This document shows positions 1 to 5,503 of a stretch of DNA of 5,503 nucleotides, piece after piece. The stretch is from IMG/VR virus record IMGVR_UViG_3300029478_000049, positions 1 through 5,503 of that record; one strand, given 5' to 3'. How positions within the stretch are numbered: the first letter of the stretch is position 1; each line of letters opens with the position of its first letter. Below the pieces are notes generated by a model that worked only from the letters and a program-made list of their open reading frames with translations, ran no database searches and was not told where the DNA came from. The stretch is from a virus. A program made the translations under genes and the position numbers.

Positions 1-77
1 AGACTGCTAAAATGTAGTTGTAAGGTACGCTTGCCCGCTTTCTCATTCTGTGGTATAATCAACACAAGGCAAGTTGT
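1..77. repeat. Terminal redundancy: 1-77 is identical to 5427-5503. The sequence is a circular genome of 5426 nt written with a 77-nt overlap.
   Basis: Direct comparison of the first and last 77 nt (agactgctaaaatgtagttgtaaggtacgc...caaggcaagttgt) shows an exact match. Confidence 0.95.
31..59 (+). promoter_or_regulatory. Candidate sigma70 promoter with an extended -10 element. TTGCCC at 31-36, a 17-nt spacer, TGg at 51-53 and TATAAT at 54-59.
   Basis: The -10 hexamer matches consensus perfectly and is preceded by the TGn extended -10 motif. The -35 is weak (TTG only). The element lies in the long non-coding region upstream of VP3 and is also present in the repeat copy at 5457-5485. Confidence 0.4.
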
Positions 78-96
78 AATACCACAACACATTAAA

Positions 97-133
97 GGCG
101 TTCAGCGTAATGTTGAGCGTCTTTTTTGTTTTT
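97..133 (+). terminator. Possible intrinsic terminator or attenuator. It has a 7-bp stem, 97-103 GGCGTTC pairing with 115-121 GAGCGTC, with two G.U wobble pairs in RNA. A T6-G-T5 run follows at 122-133.
   Basis: Stem pairing was checked base by base, and the stem is immediately followed by a U-rich tract. The stem is short and wobble-containing, so this is weak. Confidence 0.3.
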
Positions 134-135
134 AT

Positions 136-154
136 ATACCGGCTATGCCGGTAT
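136..154. other. GC-rich hairpin ATACCGGC-tat-GCCGGTAT, with an 8-bp stem and a 3-nt loop, flanked by AT-rich sequence.
   Basis: Perfect inverted repeat of 136-143 with 147-154. Possible ssDNA structural element, for example a priming or packaging signal. Confidence 0.4.
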
Positions 155-177
155 GATTGGATTTGCTGTTCGCCAGC

Positions 178-211
178 TGGAACAATCGCTTCACATCTTT
201 GTAACAATCGC
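178..211 (+). repeat. Two direct copies of TGNAACAATCGC, at 178-189 and 200-211, spaced 22 bp centre to centre. Candidate iterons or protein-binding sites.
   Basis: An exact 9-mer AACAATCGC is repeated with a conserved TG two nucleotides upstream. The spacing is about two helical turns. It is located in the non-coding region upstream of VP3. Confidence 0.4.
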
Positions 212-281
212 GGACGAGAATTGAGCCTTACGCAAAACTAACCTGCGCGCCTTGTTAGGTTAAGAAAGGAGATTTTTACGC

Positions 282-725
282 ATGGCTAAGTTTTATACGC
301 TTTACGATGAGCAACCGCCTAAACCTTATGTTGAGATTACACAGCCTTCGCTTGCTGACCAAACATTTGCCGAGGAATGCGATATTCATCATATTATAGC
401 CAACTTCAACACAACCGGCATTGTCGATTCTGTTGGCGCACATGACCCGGCTACTTTGCAGTATGGTGATACTACATTACTCCCGGATTATGAAACAGCC
501 TGCAACCTTGTTGCTAATGTTAATGCAGAGTTTGCAGACTTGCCTTCTAGCGTTCGTGCTGAATTTGGCAATGACCCACGAATGCTGCTTGATGCTCTAA
601 CATCTACTGACGCTAAAGTTGTATCTAGGCTTGAAGAGTTAGGTCTTAAACCTAAAGCTATTGTAGATACTCCGGTAGAACCTGTCACTCCGGTAGCAGG
701 AGAGAGTAATTCACAGCAAAAATAA
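282..725 (+). CDS. VP3-like internal scaffolding protein of gokushovirus type, 147 aa.
   Basis: ATG at 282 with AAGGAG at 266-271 (10-nt spacing). The size is about 150 aa. The protein contains ...QTFAEECDIHHII...TTG... and a C-terminal ...FADLPSSVRAEFGNDP... segment. I recall these as resembling conserved VP3 motifs of Chlamydia-phage-type microviruses (ECDINxI, LPxxxRxxFxNxP). This rests on remembered family features and was not searched. Confidence 0.65.
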   Translation: MAKFYTLYDEQPPKPYVEITQPSLADQTFAEECDIHHIIANFNTTGIVDSVGAHDPATLQYGDTTLLPDYETACNLVANVNAEFADLPSSVRAEFGNDPRMLLDALTSTDAKVVSRLEELGLKPKAIVDTPVEPVTPVAGESNSQQK

Positions 726-764
726 TTTATATGCTAATATTCACTTATGTAGAATAATAACCTT

Positions 765-812
765 GTCACCTTGACCAGTTACCTACTTGATAGTAACTGG
801 TCAAGGTGACAC
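765..812. other. Perfect 19-bp inverted repeat. The arms are TGTCACCTTGACCAGTTAC (765-783) and GTAACTGGTCAAGGTGACA (794-812), with a 10-nt loop CTACTTGATA (784-793). Candidate origin or structural signal in the VP3-VP1 intergenic region.
   Basis: Reverse complementarity was verified base by base, and the repeat breaks exactly at 764/813. The loop plus the start of the right arm reads ACTTGATAGTAAC. This resembles the phiX174 gpA origin core CAACTTG^ATATTAATAAC, where the nick falls between G and A. Confidence 0.6.
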
Positions 813-933
813 AAAATCAGAAAAACCTTCAAAAATAAGCCTTTTATTTATTTTTAATTCCCTTCTGATTTGATAACAAAAATGCCGTTCTCGTGCTTTT
901 TGGTCTTTTAATAAAATTAAGGAGATTTTAAAA

Positions 934-2610
934 ATGGCTCGTGATATTCGTGTTAATCAGTCGCATTTCGCGATGATTCCACAAGCTAATATTCGCCGCT
1001 CCGTGTTCGATAGAAGTCATGTTTATAAGACAACCTTTAATGAAGGCCAGCTTATTCCTTACTTTGTCGACGAAGTAATTCCAGGCGATACGTTCACTCT
1101 TAATCCCGTGGAGTTCTGTCGTTTGGCTACTCCGGTTGTTCCGTTTATGGATAACATTTATATTGAAAGTTTTTTCTTTTTCGTTCCGTCCCGTCTTGTC
1201 TATGATAAATGGGTGAATCTTTGCGGTGAGCAGGAAAATCCTGAAGATTCTACTGACTATTTAGTTCCTACTGTTTCTTTAACCGGCGATATGACAAACA
1301 AGCTCCCCGATTATATGGGTATTGCTTGCAGTAATGGCACTTTCAATAATATTTCTGTTAATTGTTTGCCGTTCCGCTCGTATTGGCTCATTTGGAATGA
1401 GTGGTTCCGCGATGAGAACCTGCAAAAGTCTGTTAAGGTTAGCAAAGGCGAAACTAACACTGTTCTTGATCCTATGGGACAATCTACCGCTAACCCTAAT
1501 TATGGTTTGCCGTCCGGTGTATCTAATTGGTATGACCCGGCTCCTCGTGGAAAAAGATATGACTATTTCACCGGTGCGCTGCCTTGGCCGCAGAAAGGTC
1601 CGGCTGTTGATTTGCCTTTAGGTACATCTGCTAATTTGTCTTTGGCTTCCGGAGCTACTATCAGTTTACCTAGTGCTTCCATGTATAATTCTTCTGACGG
1701 CAGGCAGCATAAAGCAACCGGTATTCTTACTAATGGTTCTCCTGCCGGTGGCATTTATACTTACGAAACTAATTCTACTTCATGGACTGACAAAGCTACT
1801 TCTAATGTGCCGGTTTCCGGTATTAATGGTTGGTCTGTTGATTTAACATCAGCTACCTCTATAACAATTAATTCGCTTCGTCAAGCGTTTATGCTCCAAA
1901 GATACTATGAAATTGATGCTCGTGGTGGTACTCGTTATACTGAAAAACTTCAAGCGCATTTTGGCGTAACTAATCCGGATGCACGGCTTCAACGTCCTGA
2001 GTTTCTCGGCTCGCATAGTAGCATGATGAATATTAATCCGGTTACTCAAACAAGCTCAACCGATTCTACCACTCCACAAGGTAATTTAGCTGCATACGGC
2101 CTTAACGCCCAGCGTTATCATGCCTTTACGAAATCCTTTAGTGAATTTGGTTATGTAATAGGTTTAATAAATGTGCGTGCTGACTTAACTTACCAGCAAG
2201 GTATTAATAAAATGTGGCTGCGTTCTGATGTACTCGACTTCTATTGGCCGTCCTTTGCTCATTTAGGAGAACAGGCTATTCAAAACATTGAAATTTATTG
2301 CCAAGGAAATGAAGATGATAAAAAGGTATTTGGCTATCAAGAACGCTATGCAGAATATCGTTATAAGCCGTCTTTGATTACCGGTCAATTCCGCTCAACC
2401 TATAAAGAACCTTTAGACATTTGGCATTTGTCACAGAAATTTGCTACGCTGCCTACGCTTTCGGATGAGTTTATTCAAGACCACCCGCCTATTAGTCGCG
2501 TAGTTGCTGTTTCGTCCTATCCTCATTTCTTGTTAGATGTCAAATTTAACTTGAAATGCATTCGTCCTATGCCTATGTATGGTATACCCGGCATGATGGG
2601 TCATTTCTAA
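934..2610 (+). CDS. Major capsid protein VP1, the F-protein family of Microviridae. 558 aa.
   Basis: AAGGAG at 919-924, 9 nt before the ATG. The N-terminus MARDIRVNQSHFAMIPQANIRRSVFDRSHVYKTTFNEGQLIPYFVDEVIPGDTF matches the highly conserved start of the microvirus F/VP1 jelly-roll capsid protein (...FDRSH..KTTF..G.LIP...DEVLPGDT...). The length is typical of gokushovirus VP1. Confidence 0.95.
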   Translation: MARDIRVNQSHFAMIPQANIRRSVFDRSHVYKTTFNEGQLIPYFVDEVIPGDTFTLNPVEFCRLATPVVPFMDNIYIESFFFFVPSRLVYDKWVNLCGEQENPEDSTDYLVPTVSLTGDMTNKLPDYMGIACSNGTFNNISVNCLPFRSYWLIWNEWFRDENLQKSVKVSKGETNTVLDPMGQSTANPNYGLPSGVSNWYDPAPRGKRYDYFTGALPWPQKGPAVDLPLGTSANLSLASGATISLPSASMYNSSDGRQHKATGILTNGSPAGGIYTYETNSTSWTDKATSNVPVSGINGWSVDLTSATSITINSLRQAFMLQRYYEIDARGGTRYTEKLQAHFGVTNPDARLQRPEFLGSHSSMMNINPVTQTSSTDSTTPQGNLAAYGLNAQRYHAFTKSFSEFGYVIGLINVRADLTYQQGINKMWLRSDVLDFYWPSFAHLGEQAIQNIEIYCQGNEDDKKVFGYQERYAEYRYKPSLITGQFRSTYKEPLDIWHLSQKFATLPTLSDEFIQDHPPISRVVAVSSYPHFLLDVKFNLKCIRPMPMYGIPGMMGHF

Positions 2611-2626
2611 AAAAGGAGTGATTTAG

Positions 2627-3427
2627 ATGGGTTCCTTTCTTGGCTCTGCTGCTGGAGCTTTTGCTGGTGGCATTTCGTCTATCATTGGCGGTGCTCTTTC
2701 TAACTCTGCTGCTCGCCATGCTGCAACGGTAGCTAATCAGCGTAATATTTATAACTATCAACATCGTTATCAATGGGCTATGGAAGATATGCAAAAAGCT
2801 GGTCTTAATCCTATGTTAGCTGCTACGCAAGGCATTGGTGGTTCTGTTAATGGTGCTTCTGCTCTCTCTGCTAATTACAATTTAGGTGAAGGTGTTACTG
2901 CTGGTATGTCGGCTTCTGCTGCTGGTAACTCCGCTAAGGCTGCTAATCGTCAAGCTCAGGTTGCCGAAAAGATGAGTGATGAACAGATTAAAAATTTGGC
3001 TGCTCAAACTATTCTAGCTGGCTCCAGTGCTAAAAAATATGATGCTGAAACCTATGGTATTTCTGTTGCCAATAAATTGGCTACTGATTCTTATAACGAC
3101 AATTTGGCTTTAGTCAAGCAGAATTTAGCCAATGCTCAGAAGCAAGGCGAATATATCGATGCTCAGAAAGCTAGTCAAATGTATATGATGAATGTGGTTA
3201 TGCCCGCTCAAGCTGCTATGATGTATGCTCAAGGTAATGCTGCTAACAGCTCTGCCGCTTATAATGCGCAGCTGTCCAATGTTGCAAAAGCTGATTACGA
3301 TTATAAAACTTCTCGTAATGCCGATTATAGAAATCTTGGTCTTTCAGATGATGGTTTGCCATGGAATACCATTGGCCGTGCTGCTAATCGCTTGTTTTCT
3401 AGCATTTCTAACTATTTTTCTAAATGA
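2627..3427 (+). CDS. VP2-like minor capsid / DNA pilot protein. 266 aa, Gly/Ala/Ser/Asn-rich.
   Basis: AAGGAG at 2613-2618 with 8-nt spacing. The gene lies immediately downstream of VP1, as in gokushoviruses. The composition is low-complexity, with a G/A-rich N-terminus and a coiled-coil-like middle, typical of VP2 / H-protein analogues. The call rests on position and composition rather than a specific motif. Confidence 0.7.
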   Translation: MGSFLGSAAGAFAGGISSIIGGALSNSAARHAATVANQRNIYNYQHRYQWAMEDMQKAGLNPMLAATQGIGGSVNGASALSANYNLGEGVTAGMSASAAGNSAKAANRQAQVAEKMSDEQIKNLAAQTILAGSSAKKYDAETYGISVANKLATDSYNDNLALVKQNLANAQKQGEYIDAQKASQMYMMNVVMPAQAAMMYAQGNAANSSAAYNAQLSNVAKADYDYKTSRNADYRNLGLSDDGLPWNTIGRAANRLFSSISNYFSK

Positions 3428-3438
3428 GGTGATTAATT

Positions 3439-3708
3439 ATGTCAAACAAAACTACTGCTATTTTGACTTTTCTCGTATCCACAGTTATTCCGTTCATCCA
3501 AGAGGTTGTTGATTTTATTGACATGTTTCGTACCGGCAAGTATAACCGTGAAGGCTCTGCAAGTCTTAAAGCTATCTCTTTGGCCATGCAGGATGATTTG
3601 GTTAACATGCAGAAAAGAGGTACTGACGATGTAAACGGGTTTCGCCACGCGGCAGCAGCTGCGCAAGAAGAGAAAAGTTACTCCCGCTTTTTGGGAAAAA
3701 ATAATTAA
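3439..3708 (+). CDS. Hypothetical 89-aa protein with a predicted N-terminal transmembrane helix (TTAILTFLVSTVIPFIQEVV) and a charged C-terminal tail.
   Basis: GAGGTG at 3426-3431 lies 7 nt before the ATG and overlaps the VP2 stop. The reading frame does not overlap its neighbours. Its hydrophobic N-terminus is unlike any structural microvirus protein. See findings for the lysis hypothesis. Confidence 0.6.
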   Translation: MSNKTTAILTFLVSTVIPFIQEVVDFIDMFRTGKYNREGSASLKAISLAMQDDLVNMQKRGTDDVNGFRHAAAAAQEEKSYSRFLGKNN

Positions 3709-3746
3709 CCTTTTAACCCTTGGTATTTATTTAAGGAGTAAATGTC

Positions 3747-3860
3747 ATGAAAAGAAGTAGAATTTCTCGCGGCAGTTCTCTTCGGAACTTTCGCAATCAT
3801 GCTGTTCCGCGGCTTAAAAATCTTAAATCTCGTAACATGCGCGGCGGTATCCGCATGTAA
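3747..3860 (+). CDS. Small highly basic 37-aa protein, MKRSRISRGSSLRNFRNHAVPRLKNLKSRNMRGGIRM. It is likely a DNA-binding / packaging protein, analogous to phiX174 J or to Chlamydia-phage ORF8.
   Basis: AAGGAG at 3733-3738 lies 8 nt upstream of the ATG at 3747, and the stop is TAA at 3858-3860. 12 of 37 residues are Arg/Lys. The ORF lies between the structural genes and rep, where gokushoviruses encode their small basic DNA-binding protein. It is below the 60-aa cutoff of the supplied ORF track. Confidence 0.55.
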   Translation: MKRSRISRGSSLRNFRNHAVPRLKNLKSRNMRGGIRM

Positions 3861-3877
3861 CAGAAAGTGTGTGTATT

Positions 3878-4822
3878 ATGACTTGCCTTAACCCGATGTT
3901 TGCTAAACGCTCTGCTGTGCCTAACGCTAACGGCAAGTATGAGCTATCAAATTTTGTTGCTTATCGTCAGTTGTTCGGTAAATCTCTTGAATATGCCAAG
4001 GCTGAATTAGCTAATAATTATGCTGTTGTCGTTCCGTGCGGTCAATGCTTAGGCTGCCGTTTGGATAAAGCCAATGACTGGGCCATTCGGTGCGTTCATG
4101 AGGCAAAACTGCATTTGCATAATTGTTTTATAACGCTAACCTATAACGATGATTGCCTTCCAGCTGACTGTTCGTTGCATCGTGATCATTTGCAGCTTTT
4201 TTTCAAGCGACTTCGTCGCTACCTTGATTATCATGATAATTCTAAGATACGTTTTCTGTGTTGCGGTGAGTATGGCGATCTTAATCGCAGGCCGCATTAT
4301 CATATTCTTTGCTTTGGTTGGTTTCCTGCTGATGTCCGGAAAGTTTCGGCGTTGACAGCTGGTTACAATCTCTTTCGTTCTCCCACTCTGGAGCGGCTTT
4401 GGCCGTATGGTTTTAATACTGTAGGTGCTATTACCTTTGAATCTGCCCGCTATGTCGCAAAATATAGTCTTAAAAAGCAGACCGGTAAAAATGCCTGCAT
4501 GTATGACGCTCTAGGTATATCTCCGGAGTTTGTCGGCAGCTCTCTTAAGCCAGGTATAGGAGCTGATTATTTTGGCCGTTATTCTGAGGATATTTTTAAA
4601 CTAGGCTTTGTTACAATTAATGGAGCTAAGTATAAAATACCTCGCTATTATCAAACTTTATTTGAGCGCAGCAATCCCGTTTGGTATAGTATATACAAGC
4701 AGCAAAGGGCCGAAAATGCTAAGGCTGCTGTTATTGATTGTAAAAGGCTGGAAGCCAAGGAGAAGATTTTAAAGCACCGGCAGGAACAATTTGAGCGTGA
4801 TTTTGATAATTTAGGTTTGTAA
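3878..4822 (+). CDS. Replication initiation protein VP4, a gpA-like rolling-circle endonuclease. It is 314 aa from the ATG at 3878, or 317 aa from an alternative in-frame GTG at 3869.
   Basis: The translation shows rolling-circle Rep motifs: CFITLTY (motif I), PHYHILCFG (the HxH metal-binding motif II) and ARYVAKYSLKK (the catalytic YxxKY motif III). The N-terminus MTCLNPM is typical of microvirus Rep proteins. No strong SD is present, so initiation may be coupled to the upstream small ORF, which ends at 3860. Confidence 0.9.
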   Translation: MTCLNPMFAKRSAVPNANGKYELSNFVAYRQLFGKSLEYAKAELANNYAVVVPCGQCLGCRLDKANDWAIRCVHEAKLHLHNCFITLTYNDDCLPADCSLHRDHLQLFFKRLRRYLDYHDNSKIRFLCCGEYGDLNRRPHYHILCFGWFPADVRKVSALTAGYNLFRSPTLERLWPYGFNTVGAITFESARYVAKYSLKKQTGKNACMYDALGISPEFVGSSLKPGIGADYFGRYSEDIFKLGFVTINGAKYKIPRYYQTLFERSNPVWYSIYKQQRAENAKAAVIDCKRLEAKEKILKHRQEQFERDFDNLGL

Positions 4823-4877
4823 AAGTTGTAAAAAGTTGCAAAAAGTTGTTGACAGTTGCTATTTCACATGATATAAT
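4821..4877 (+). promoter_or_regulatory. Strong sigma70 promoter: TTGACA (4849-4854), a 17-nt spacer, then TG-a-TATAAT (TG at 4869-4870, hexamer at 4872-4877). It is preceded by three 10-bp tandem A-tract repeats, AAAAGTTGYW, at 4821/4831/4841, giving an UP-element-like phased bend.
   Basis: Both hexamers match consensus exactly, the spacer length is optimal and an extended -10 TG is present. The A4-5 tracts repeat at exactly 10-bp periodicity, spanning about -30 to -60. The predicted transcription start is near 4884. The downstream gene has GAGGT at 4891-4895 and ATG at 4903. Confidence 0.75.
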
Positions 4878-4902
4878 ATATACAGAAAGTGAGGTAAGCA
4901 AT

Positions 4903-5163
4903 ATGTTAAAAGATTACTATTTTTCTTCTTTCATTGGTACTAAATGCACTCTTAAGCCTTCTACTATTAAAGCTGTTGAGGAAATTCTTTCTCGCCAAGC
5001 ATGTTTTCCTACCTATGGACGTTATCGCTCTTATTGCAAACGTGTTCAATCATTTGGCAAATGTTTCCTTTGGTGTGGTTTTTACTTTGAAGTTGCTGAA
5101 GGGTGCAGAAATAAGCTTTTGTGTATTTTAAAAGCTGATTCTCTAGATAATGAGGTGAATTAA
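4903..5163 (+). CDS. Hypothetical Cys-rich 86-aa protein with 7 Cys.
   Basis: ATG at 4903 with GAGGT 8 nt upstream, directly downstream of the consensus promoter. The 105-aa version in the ORF track starts at a TTG inside the promoter, so I place the start at 4903. There is no recognisable family. Either this ORF or the next may be the VP5 / protein-C analogue. Confidence 0.55.
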   Translation: MLKDYYFSSFIGTKCTLKPSTIKAVEEILSRQACFPTYGRYRSYCKRVQSFGKCFLWCGFYFEVAEGCRNKLLCILKADSLDNEVN

Positions 5164-5503
5164 TGAAACTTTATTGTATTTATGACCGCAAGGGTGAGCT
5201 GATGAACCCGCCTTTCGTTCAACAAAATAATGCTATGGCTATCCGTCAATTTCAAATTATGGTTAATCAGGCTTCTACTCCGGAGCGTTCCAATATTATC
5301 CATGATTATCATGAGGACTTCGTTCTGATGTATCTTGGCGAATTTAATGATAAAACGTGTGAATTTTCCCCACAAAATCCCACTTTGCTTTTGTCTACCG
5401 CTACGGAACTATTGACTCCCCCCCCCAGACTGCTAAAATGTAGTTGTAAGGTACGCTTGCCCGCTTTCTCATTCTGTGGTATAATCAACACAAGGCAAGT
5501 TGT
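5163..5503 (+). CDS. Hypothetical small protein, MKLYCIYDRKGELMNPPFVQQNNAMAIRQF.... As written, the frame runs through the C9 tract and across the circular junction to a TGA at window position 154-156, giving 139 aa. With C8 or C10 it would stop at 5434-5436 or 5441-5443, giving about 90 aa.
   Basis: ATG at 5163 overlaps the upstream stop (TAATG), with GAGGTG at 5152-5157. The first ~85 aa look like a genuine small phage protein. The segment after the poly-C is low-complexity and overlaps the promoter and terminator elements. The true C-terminus therefore depends on the C-tract length. Not in the ORF track, because it runs off the window end. Confidence 0.5.
   Translation, partial: MKLYCIYDRKGELMNPPFVQQNNAMAIRQFQIMVNQASTPERSNIIHDYHEDFVLMYLGEFNDKTCEFSPQNPTLLLSTATELLTPPPRLLKCSCKVRLPAFSFCGIINTRQV
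5418..5426. repeat. C9 homopolymer immediately upstream of the circular junction.
   Basis: Nine consecutive C read at 5418-5426. It sits at the contig break point and inside the last ORF. Confidence 0.9.
5427..5503. repeat. Second copy of the terminal redundancy. Together with 1-77 this is a circularisation signature of the assembly.
   Basis: Exact 77/77 identity with positions 1-77. Confidence 0.95.

Follow-up and report, generated by a model that had tools for sequence, protein, structure and literature searches.

The 5,503-nt stretch of viral DNA analyzed here (the window; positions 1 to 5,503 of IMG/VR virus record IMGVR_UViG_3300029478_000049) contains the genome of a gokushovirus, a circle of 5,426 nt with a 77-nt terminal redundancy in the window (positions 1–77 are the same as 5427–5503). 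All eight open reading frames (ORFs) are located on the + strand, and Pfam assignments were obtained for VP3, VP1, VP4, and VP5; the closest GenBank records are faecal gokushoviruses with about 70% identical VP1. Between the VP3 and VP1 genes lies a hairpin with a perfect 19-bp stem (100% complementary) and a 10-nt loop. This hairpin, proposed as a candidate replication origin in a first-pass annotation of the window, was analyzed together with the box and the A-rich tail at its 3' side (Table 1) and with VP4, the replication protein (Rep).

Both the stem and the loop were confirmed by an inverted-repeat search, the arms running from 764 to 811, one base off the interval 765–812 given in the first-pass annotation. 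The outer part of the 5' arm, GTCACC, pairs with the GGTGAC box. The hairpin had also been described as the strongest structure in the genome, and no comparable inverted repeat was found elsewhere: the only other one of at least 10 nt within 200 nt was a 10-nt pair. Folding of positions 760–820 as single-stranded DNA gave −21.1 kcal/mol (z = −8.5), and none of 200 shuffles was as good; the fold of the whole intergenic region had a z value of −8.3. The chance expectation for a perfect 19-bp stem with a loop of 3–20 nt is about 4e-7 per 5.4 kb. A-rich tails similar to that at 813–836 were also noticed by eye 3' of the box in relatives; in the window, this tail may flank the presumed origin with DNA that bends or unwinds easily.

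The octamer ACTTGATA in the loop, put forward earlier as a link to phiX174, occurs as a single exact copy in the window; with one mismatch allowed, 6 matches were found against 5.9 expected from shuffles of the window, so there was no enrichment. Because the one-mismatch frequency equals that of shuffles, the octamer alone carries no weight, which comes instead from its placement and conservation.

The hairpin was retained in all close relatives. In 15 of 15 IMG/VR genomes with 85–97% identical VP4, a stem of 19–20 bp was kept, three of them having double compensating substitutions in the stem; the first and last bases of the loop vary around the unchanged core. In genomes with 45–80% identical VP4, obtained via exact protein look-up, the outer pairs GTCACC/GGTGAC and the inner pairs CCAGTTAC/GTAACTGG were retained, while four to six middle pairs of the stem were rewritten, with compensation in every case. 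In the two closest GenBank genomes, KT264820 and KT264821, the stems (CAGTGGGAACAGTA and GTCAGTCGTTCTATAT, respectively) are unrelated, but the loop, CCTACTTGAT, is the same.

A distant set of 80 genomes with 36–48% identical VP4 was chosen via VP4 alignment, blind to the hairpin. The longest perfect hairpin in most of them was ..CACAGTTAC-(N)TACTTGAT-GTAACTGTG.., and 75 of the 80 had, on the gene strand, a stem of at least 7 bp whose loop contained CT[TA]G[AT]T. Two more (L046 and L071) had the same sequence with an imperfect stem; of the others, L069 combined the stem with another loop, and L092 carried the module in inverted orientation. No module was found in L076, where the interval between VP3 and VP1 spans the contig ends and the region may be absent from the contig rather than from the genome. 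Altogether, about 170 gokushovirus genomes with one such hairpin were collected, including those of Chp2 (2904–2941; a 14-bp stem with the loop TCTACTTGAT, the strongest hairpin of that genome), phiMH2K (3296–3335, loop GGACCCTACTTGTTGTAA), and SpV4 (512–544, loop ATTACTTGTTATA). The exact consensus 15-mer retrieved at least 120 IMG/VR stretches; of 104 new ones, 84 were gokushovirus contigs with the hairpin, and the remaining 20, unrelated contigs without the stem, were regarded as chance matches and excluded. The comparison of relatives suggested earlier, for the stem, covarying arms, and a CTTGAT loop, thus gave a clearly positive result across the whole subfamily. Genome L111 has an extra perfect 20-bp hairpin (3119–3164, loop GCTTGA) between VP5 and VP3 in addition to the canonical module at 3714–3746.

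The consensus of 85 non-redundant elements was TACTTGATGTAACTGTGCTAGGTGACACCAAA. The loop core is kept as C-T-[T/A]-G-[A/T]-T, mostly TACTTGAT, and the C, T, G, and T of C-T-x-G-x-T are invariant in an alignment of 81 sequences. Perfect stems range from 6 to 20 bp (median 11) and loops from 5 to 21 nt; in every element, the motif occupies the 3' side of the loop. TGACA was found in 79 of the 85 elements, and GAC begins 17 nt past the G of the motif in 57 elements, the spacing being 18 nt in another 19; in the window, GAC starts 18 nt past the predicted nick. KT264821, phiMH2K, and SpV4 were scored as lacking the box; by eye, TGACG or TCACA is located there at the same spacing. The module is defined here for gokushoviruses in general as one copy per genome of a stem of at least 6 bp, with CT[TA]G[AT]T in the 3' part of the loop and TGAC 17–18 nt past the G, and the window element fits this definition.

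Changes on both sides were observed in all ten inner pairs of the stem, with 88% of the alignment cells paired. The covariation score was 0.339, compared with 0.07–0.11 when the partners were slid by 1–3 columns, and none of 500 shuffles reached 0.339. A covariance model built on these elements (R1) had one strong match per gokushovirus genome, including genomes outside the training set, and no match in phiX174 or in eight non-gokushovirus microviruses. The window scored 65.9 bits (E = 1.4e-15) as part of the training alignment. A search of Rfam gave sub-threshold chance matches only, e.g., mir-582 with 22.8 bits versus a gathering score of 84.

Covarying arms may also be two half-sites of one dimeric protein, i.e., a duplex-DNA operator palindrome, and a capsid packaging signal unrelated to nicking is a further reading of the same kind; the phiX174 origin is the sole cis element needed for packaging, so the roles of origin and packaging signal may coincide (PMC13386984). 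We consider an operator or a separate packaging signal very improbable: the sequence and length (6–20 bp) of the stem are nearly all different among relatives sharing the same proteins, the conserved parts are an asymmetric loop and a one-sided box, and no sequence-specific DNA-binding regulator was recognisable among the eight ORFs.

VP4 is a protein of 314 aa with a two-tyrosine motif, in which PF23343 was the sole domain detected. Its motifs FITLTY, RPHYHIL, and ARYVAKYSLKK align with FDTLTL, RLHFHAV, and GFYVAKYVNKK of phiX174 protein A, where the tyrosines of the two-tyrosine motif are Y343 and Y347. Residues H140, H142, Y192, Y196, and K200 of VP4 are invariant in 23 homologues. Among solved structures, no relative of VP4 was found at E ≤ 1, and the CRESS-type architecture of a single tyrosine and a fused SF3 helicase was not seen in VP4. 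VP4 is a rolling-circle Rep of the HUH endonuclease type with two tyrosines, and the presumed trans partner of the module.

To our knowledge, experimentally defined microvirus origins are limited to phiX174 and its close relatives. phiX174 and G4 belong to the same virus family as the gokushoviruses, and their HUH Rep with two tyrosines is homologous to VP4. The phiX174 origin reads CCCCCAACTTG^ATATTAATAACACTATAGACCAC (AACTTG^ATATTAATAAC, where ^ marks the nick), with rep_origin annotated at 4306. The heptamer ACTTGAT across the mapped nick G^A (phiX174 4301–4307) is identical in the window, which reads TACTTGATA at 784–792. GAC is likewise found 17 nt downstream of the phiX174 nick, a likeness that is not significant alone. 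In phiX174, the origin, a 30-nt recognition sequence of gpA, is located in gene A and has an AT-rich spacer and no hairpin, whereas the window element is intergenic, with an arm of a covarying hairpin as its spacer. Supercoiling is believed to melt the AT-rich spacer of phiX174. The conserved 30-nt phiX174 sequence, with its spacer and right-hand binding part ATTAATAACACTATAGACCAC, was not matched by the window element. The likeness to the phiX174 origin sequence quoted in the first-pass annotation was correct; the "...TAAC tail" and the wider likeness were not significant. The tail and the box were rejected as proof of wider homology, the gokushovirus weight matrix having failed to select the phiX174 origin. 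Homology to the phiX174 origin beyond the heptamer is unproven, and the heptamer and the GAC spacing were kept as leads. In a non-gokushovirus, Capybara microvirus Cap1_SP_92 (MK496700, L222), ACTTGATATTGTAAC was noticed at 4771–4785 within the rep gene, without a hairpin module, which recalls the phiX174 origin within gene A.

In plasmid pC194, the nick site is presumably CTTG^ATA, and we take its Rep to be related to phiX174 protein A. The pC194 origin sequence TTCTTATCTTGATAATAAGGGTAACTATTGCC also includes the CTTGATA of the nick region (PMC7072734). Origins of the pC194/pUB110 family belong to Gram-positive plasmid replicons, and the architecture of their Reps differs. Origins of CRESS-DNA viruses (geminiviruses, circoviruses, and nanoviruses) and of pT181 follow the same logic as the window element: an intergenic inverted repeat, a nick sequence in the loop, and adjoining Rep determinants. 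However, a single catalytic tyrosine, in most cases with a helicase fused to the protein, characterizes their Reps, the loop contains a nonanucleotide, e.g., TAATATT^AC, and the binding repeats are iterated, whereas the window has a phiX-type Rep and, with no repeats beside the hairpin, one TGAC(AC) box at a fixed spacing. Intergenic hairpins beside rep, with conserved loops and compensatory stem changes, were described in reekeekee- and roodoodoo-microviruses (Olo Ndela et al. 2022; PMC9865509); the authors tentatively proposed a part in starting the negative strand, and their report mentions no phiX-like nick motif. These hairpins belong to clades other than gokushoviruses. In the searchable literature, neither a gokushovirus origin nor this hairpin was found to be described; an earlier remark on a single phage (Chp2, phiMH2K) is possible. 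An inverted repeat, a nick sequence in its loop, and covariation, by which hairpin-loop origins are recognised, were all found in the window element. The proposed mechanism is of a known kind, a rolling-circle origin with the nick site in a hairpin loop; what is new is that a Rep and a nick heptamer of the phiX type occur together with a hairpin in an intergenic site and a TGAC box at a fixed spacing throughout the subfamily.

The element at 764–816 is, with a probability of roughly 0.75, the viral-strand (double-strand) rolling-circle origin, nicked by VP4 between G789 and A790. The proposal of a replication origin is supported by the conservation and covariation of the module and by the phiX A-type motifs of VP4; the (+) function and the position of the nick are predicted by analogy with ACTTG^AT of phiX174. 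We infer recognition of the module by VP4, extrusion of the hairpin, and the role of the box. VP4 is the expected reader because it is the common phage protein expected to read a specific DNA sequence. Moreover, HUH endonucleases cut single-stranded DNA, and a hairpin loop would suit VP4 by supplying it. A phage-encoded reader is favored over a host priming factor since the cultured hosts span Chlamydia, Bdellovibrio, and Spiroplasma. In the supercoiled replicative form, the inverted repeat would extrude as a hairpin with the loop TACTTG^ATA single-stranded; VP4, for which the stem and the GGTGACAC box would provide the positioning, would cut G789^A790 and become linked to the 5' end, and the 3'-OH would prime leading-strand synthesis. 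After one round, the hairpin would reform in the displaced strand, the second tyrosine would cut, and the ends would be joined, releasing a circular genome for packaging. A packaging role is also possible for the module, because the phiX174 origin suffices for packaging in cis.

The pairing of the box raises the question of a function on single-stranded DNA. In the clade of the window, the box is paired within the extended main stem; of 76 other elements, 24 have the box in a small additional hairpin, compared with 4.4% in shuffles. This second hairpin follows just 3' of the main one, with the box as its 5' arm (e.g., GAGTGAC-ACCA-GTCACTC), in L018, L023, L036, L059, L071, and others. Such pairing suggests a function in single-stranded DNA and would suit a complementary-strand (minus) origin, i.e., a hairpin on the packaged strand where host RNA polymerase, primase, or a PriA-type primosome starts conversion, as at G4 oric, the phiX174 n' site, and plasmid single-strand origins (sso). 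The hairpin is stable and located on the normally packaged strand, and the conserved hairpins of other small microviruses were so interpreted (PMC9865509). We regard this explanation as unlikely, although a minus-strand role in addition to the origin role is possible. What is conserved corresponds to the nick heptamer of the Rep rather than to any primase or PriA signal known to us, and the same core is found in phages of Chlamydia, Spiroplasma, and Bdellovibrio and in gut and marine phages, the priming machineries of which presumably differ. Besides, an inverted copy of the module would put the complement on the packaged strand, so that a sequence-specific signal would be lost, yet complete circles carry the inverted copy alone.

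The module was intergenic in the window and in every relative examined. The hairpin starts at a median of 20 nt past the VP3 stop codon and overlaps the stop codon in some genomes. The gene after it is VP8 or VP4 in 54 genomes, the common order, and VP1 in 24, the arrangement of the window; the VP3–VP1 location reported earlier therefore holds for the window but not as a general site, the rule being just downstream of VP3. In KT264821 (L002), the module at 2873–2917 is located after the ORF following VP2, upstream of a small basic protein and VP4 (ORFx/VP8), and in phiMH2K (L100) it follows VP5 (the VP5/J-like gap). Since these placements differ, the module has moved relative to VP3 at least twice. 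Its integrity is retained while the intergenic region changes (VP3/VP4 or VP3/VP8, VP3/VP1, ORFx/VP8, and VP5/J-like).

Its location on the coding strand shortly past the VP3 stop codon in most genomes would be expected of an RNA element, a terminator or 3' stabiliser of the messenger of VP3 (late operon), and a simple scan called the hairpin terminator-like, on the minus strand only. A T-rich coding-strand tail was present in none of the 85 elements, the tails being A-rich (ACAAAATCAGAAAAA in the window), and an intrinsic terminator was rejected on this ground. Furthermore, a terminator needs neither an invariant non-palindromic loop nor a box at a fixed spacing, there was no match in Rfam, and inverted copies preserve the DNA motif and not the RNA context. 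An RNA element is therefore highly unlikely.

In about 5% of the genomes examined (L092, L146, L168, L176, L183, L194, L198, and L218), the whole module, including the box, occupies the usual site after VP3 in the orientation opposite to that of every gene. L146 is IMG/VR record IMGVR_UViG_3300012286_000162. The inverted copies carry the TACTTGATGT loop and the TGAC box; in L092, the inverted module is found at 2071–2098 and 6778–6808. These contigs represent at least four sequence types and are otherwise ordinary gokushoviruses; five of them, judging from their terminal repeats, appear to be complete circular genomes. If the module is the origin, the antisense strand would be packaged in these phages. 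We know of no antisense-strand packaging in Microviridae, a family regarded as strictly positive-sense. At the same time, the inverted copies give mild support to the origin, because a nick site works in inverted orientation, changing the displaced strand only; a minus origin or an RNA element would survive inversion less easily. A tentative possibility is that the three parts of the module (hairpin, nick motif, and TGAC box) make up a portable origin cassette that determines its own strand: the strand with ACTTGAT would be nicked, displaced, and packaged, and genomes with the inverted cassette would package the antisense strand.

Besides this inversion, several points weigh against the rolling-circle origin. 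Linkage of the module to the 3' end of VP3 rather than to rep is unexplained by the origin model, and protein A of phiX174 requires no hairpin. When the gokushovirus weight matrix was run on phiX174, the register of the origin came out at rank 499 for the downstream part and at rank 696 for the box, both out of 10,772. In L069 (3221–3255), the consensus stem GGCACAGTTAC/GTAACTGTGCC is present with the loop TCCCAGTTCATCT, which is devoid of the CTTGAT core; the covariance model score of this genome was 37.7 bits despite the altered loop. Finally, origin function was deduced from sequence.

Table 1. Hairpin module and genes of the window.
Feature	Position	Strand	Evidence or remark
Hairpin 5' arm TGTCACCTTGACCAGTTAC	764–782	+	19/19 complementary; compensatory changes in relatives
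Hairpin loop CTACTTGATA, conserved core TACTTGAT	783–792	+	Core invariant in 15 close relatives
Hairpin 3' arm GTAACTGGTCAAGGTGACA	793–811	+	Inverted-repeat search; GTAACTG also sequence-conserved in most gokushoviruses
GGTGACAC box (TGAC at 807–810), candidate Rep binding determinant	805–812	+	Conserved spacing in relatives
A-rich tail AAAATCAGAAAAACCTTCAAAAA, A-tracts about 10 nt apart	813–836	+	Read from sequence
VP3 scaffold	282–725	+	Pfam Chlamy_scaf
VP1 capsid	934–2610	+	Pfam Phage_F
VP2	2627–3427	+	
89-aa ORF	3439–3708	+	
Arginine-rich 37-aa protein	3747–3860	+	
VP4, Rep	3878–4822	+	Pfam PF23343, E = 2.8e-23
86-aa ORF	4903–5163	+	
VP5	5163–5444	+	Pfam

Several other features of the genome were noted. 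A run of nine C (5418–5426) abuts the circle junction in the final codons of VP5 (..TPPPQTAKM*); such a homopolymer, placed where the assembly closes, may be prone to errors. The gap between VP5 and VP3 contains a promoter-like TTGCCC-17-TATAAT with TG at 31–59, a terminator-like hairpin with a T-run at 94–133, and then a second perfect hairpin at 135–155. The RNA fold of 60–160 had a z value of −6.1, and the region 31–155 is a candidate short transcript or leader. The sequence AAGTTGYAA is present in three exact copies (71, 4823, and 4833) and one copy with one mismatch (15), with a promoter-like site beside each; its enrichment was modest (9 versus 4.7 expected, with 9 reached in 5 of 200 shuffles), and KT264820 and KT264821 have different repeats in the corresponding places. 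One of these promoter-like sites is a sigma-70 consensus promoter with a 12/12 match at 4849–4877, upstream of the ORF at 4903–5163. A genome scan for the host via prophages gave one 5.5-kb contig, binned in a Clostridiales metagenome-assembled genome, and was uninformative.

Few single-stranded DNA phages are as abundant as gokushoviruses in viromes from the gut, the sea, and freshwater, and a simple model is enough to locate an element of 50–60 nt in practically all of their genomes. A single oligonucleotide and a single protein would thus suffice for a direct test of the replication origin. The module also provides a natural zero point for annotating and comparing the circular genomes of gokushoviruses and offers a cis element for gokushovirus phagemids or vectors. 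One Rep family would read the same nick heptamer either in a melting AT-rich stretch, as in phiX174, or in a hairpin loop, as in gokushoviruses. For the phages with inverted copies, it can be asked, and answered, which strand is packaged; if the module is indeed a cassette that sets its own strand, the approximately 5% of genomes with the inverted copy would be antisense-packaging microviruses.
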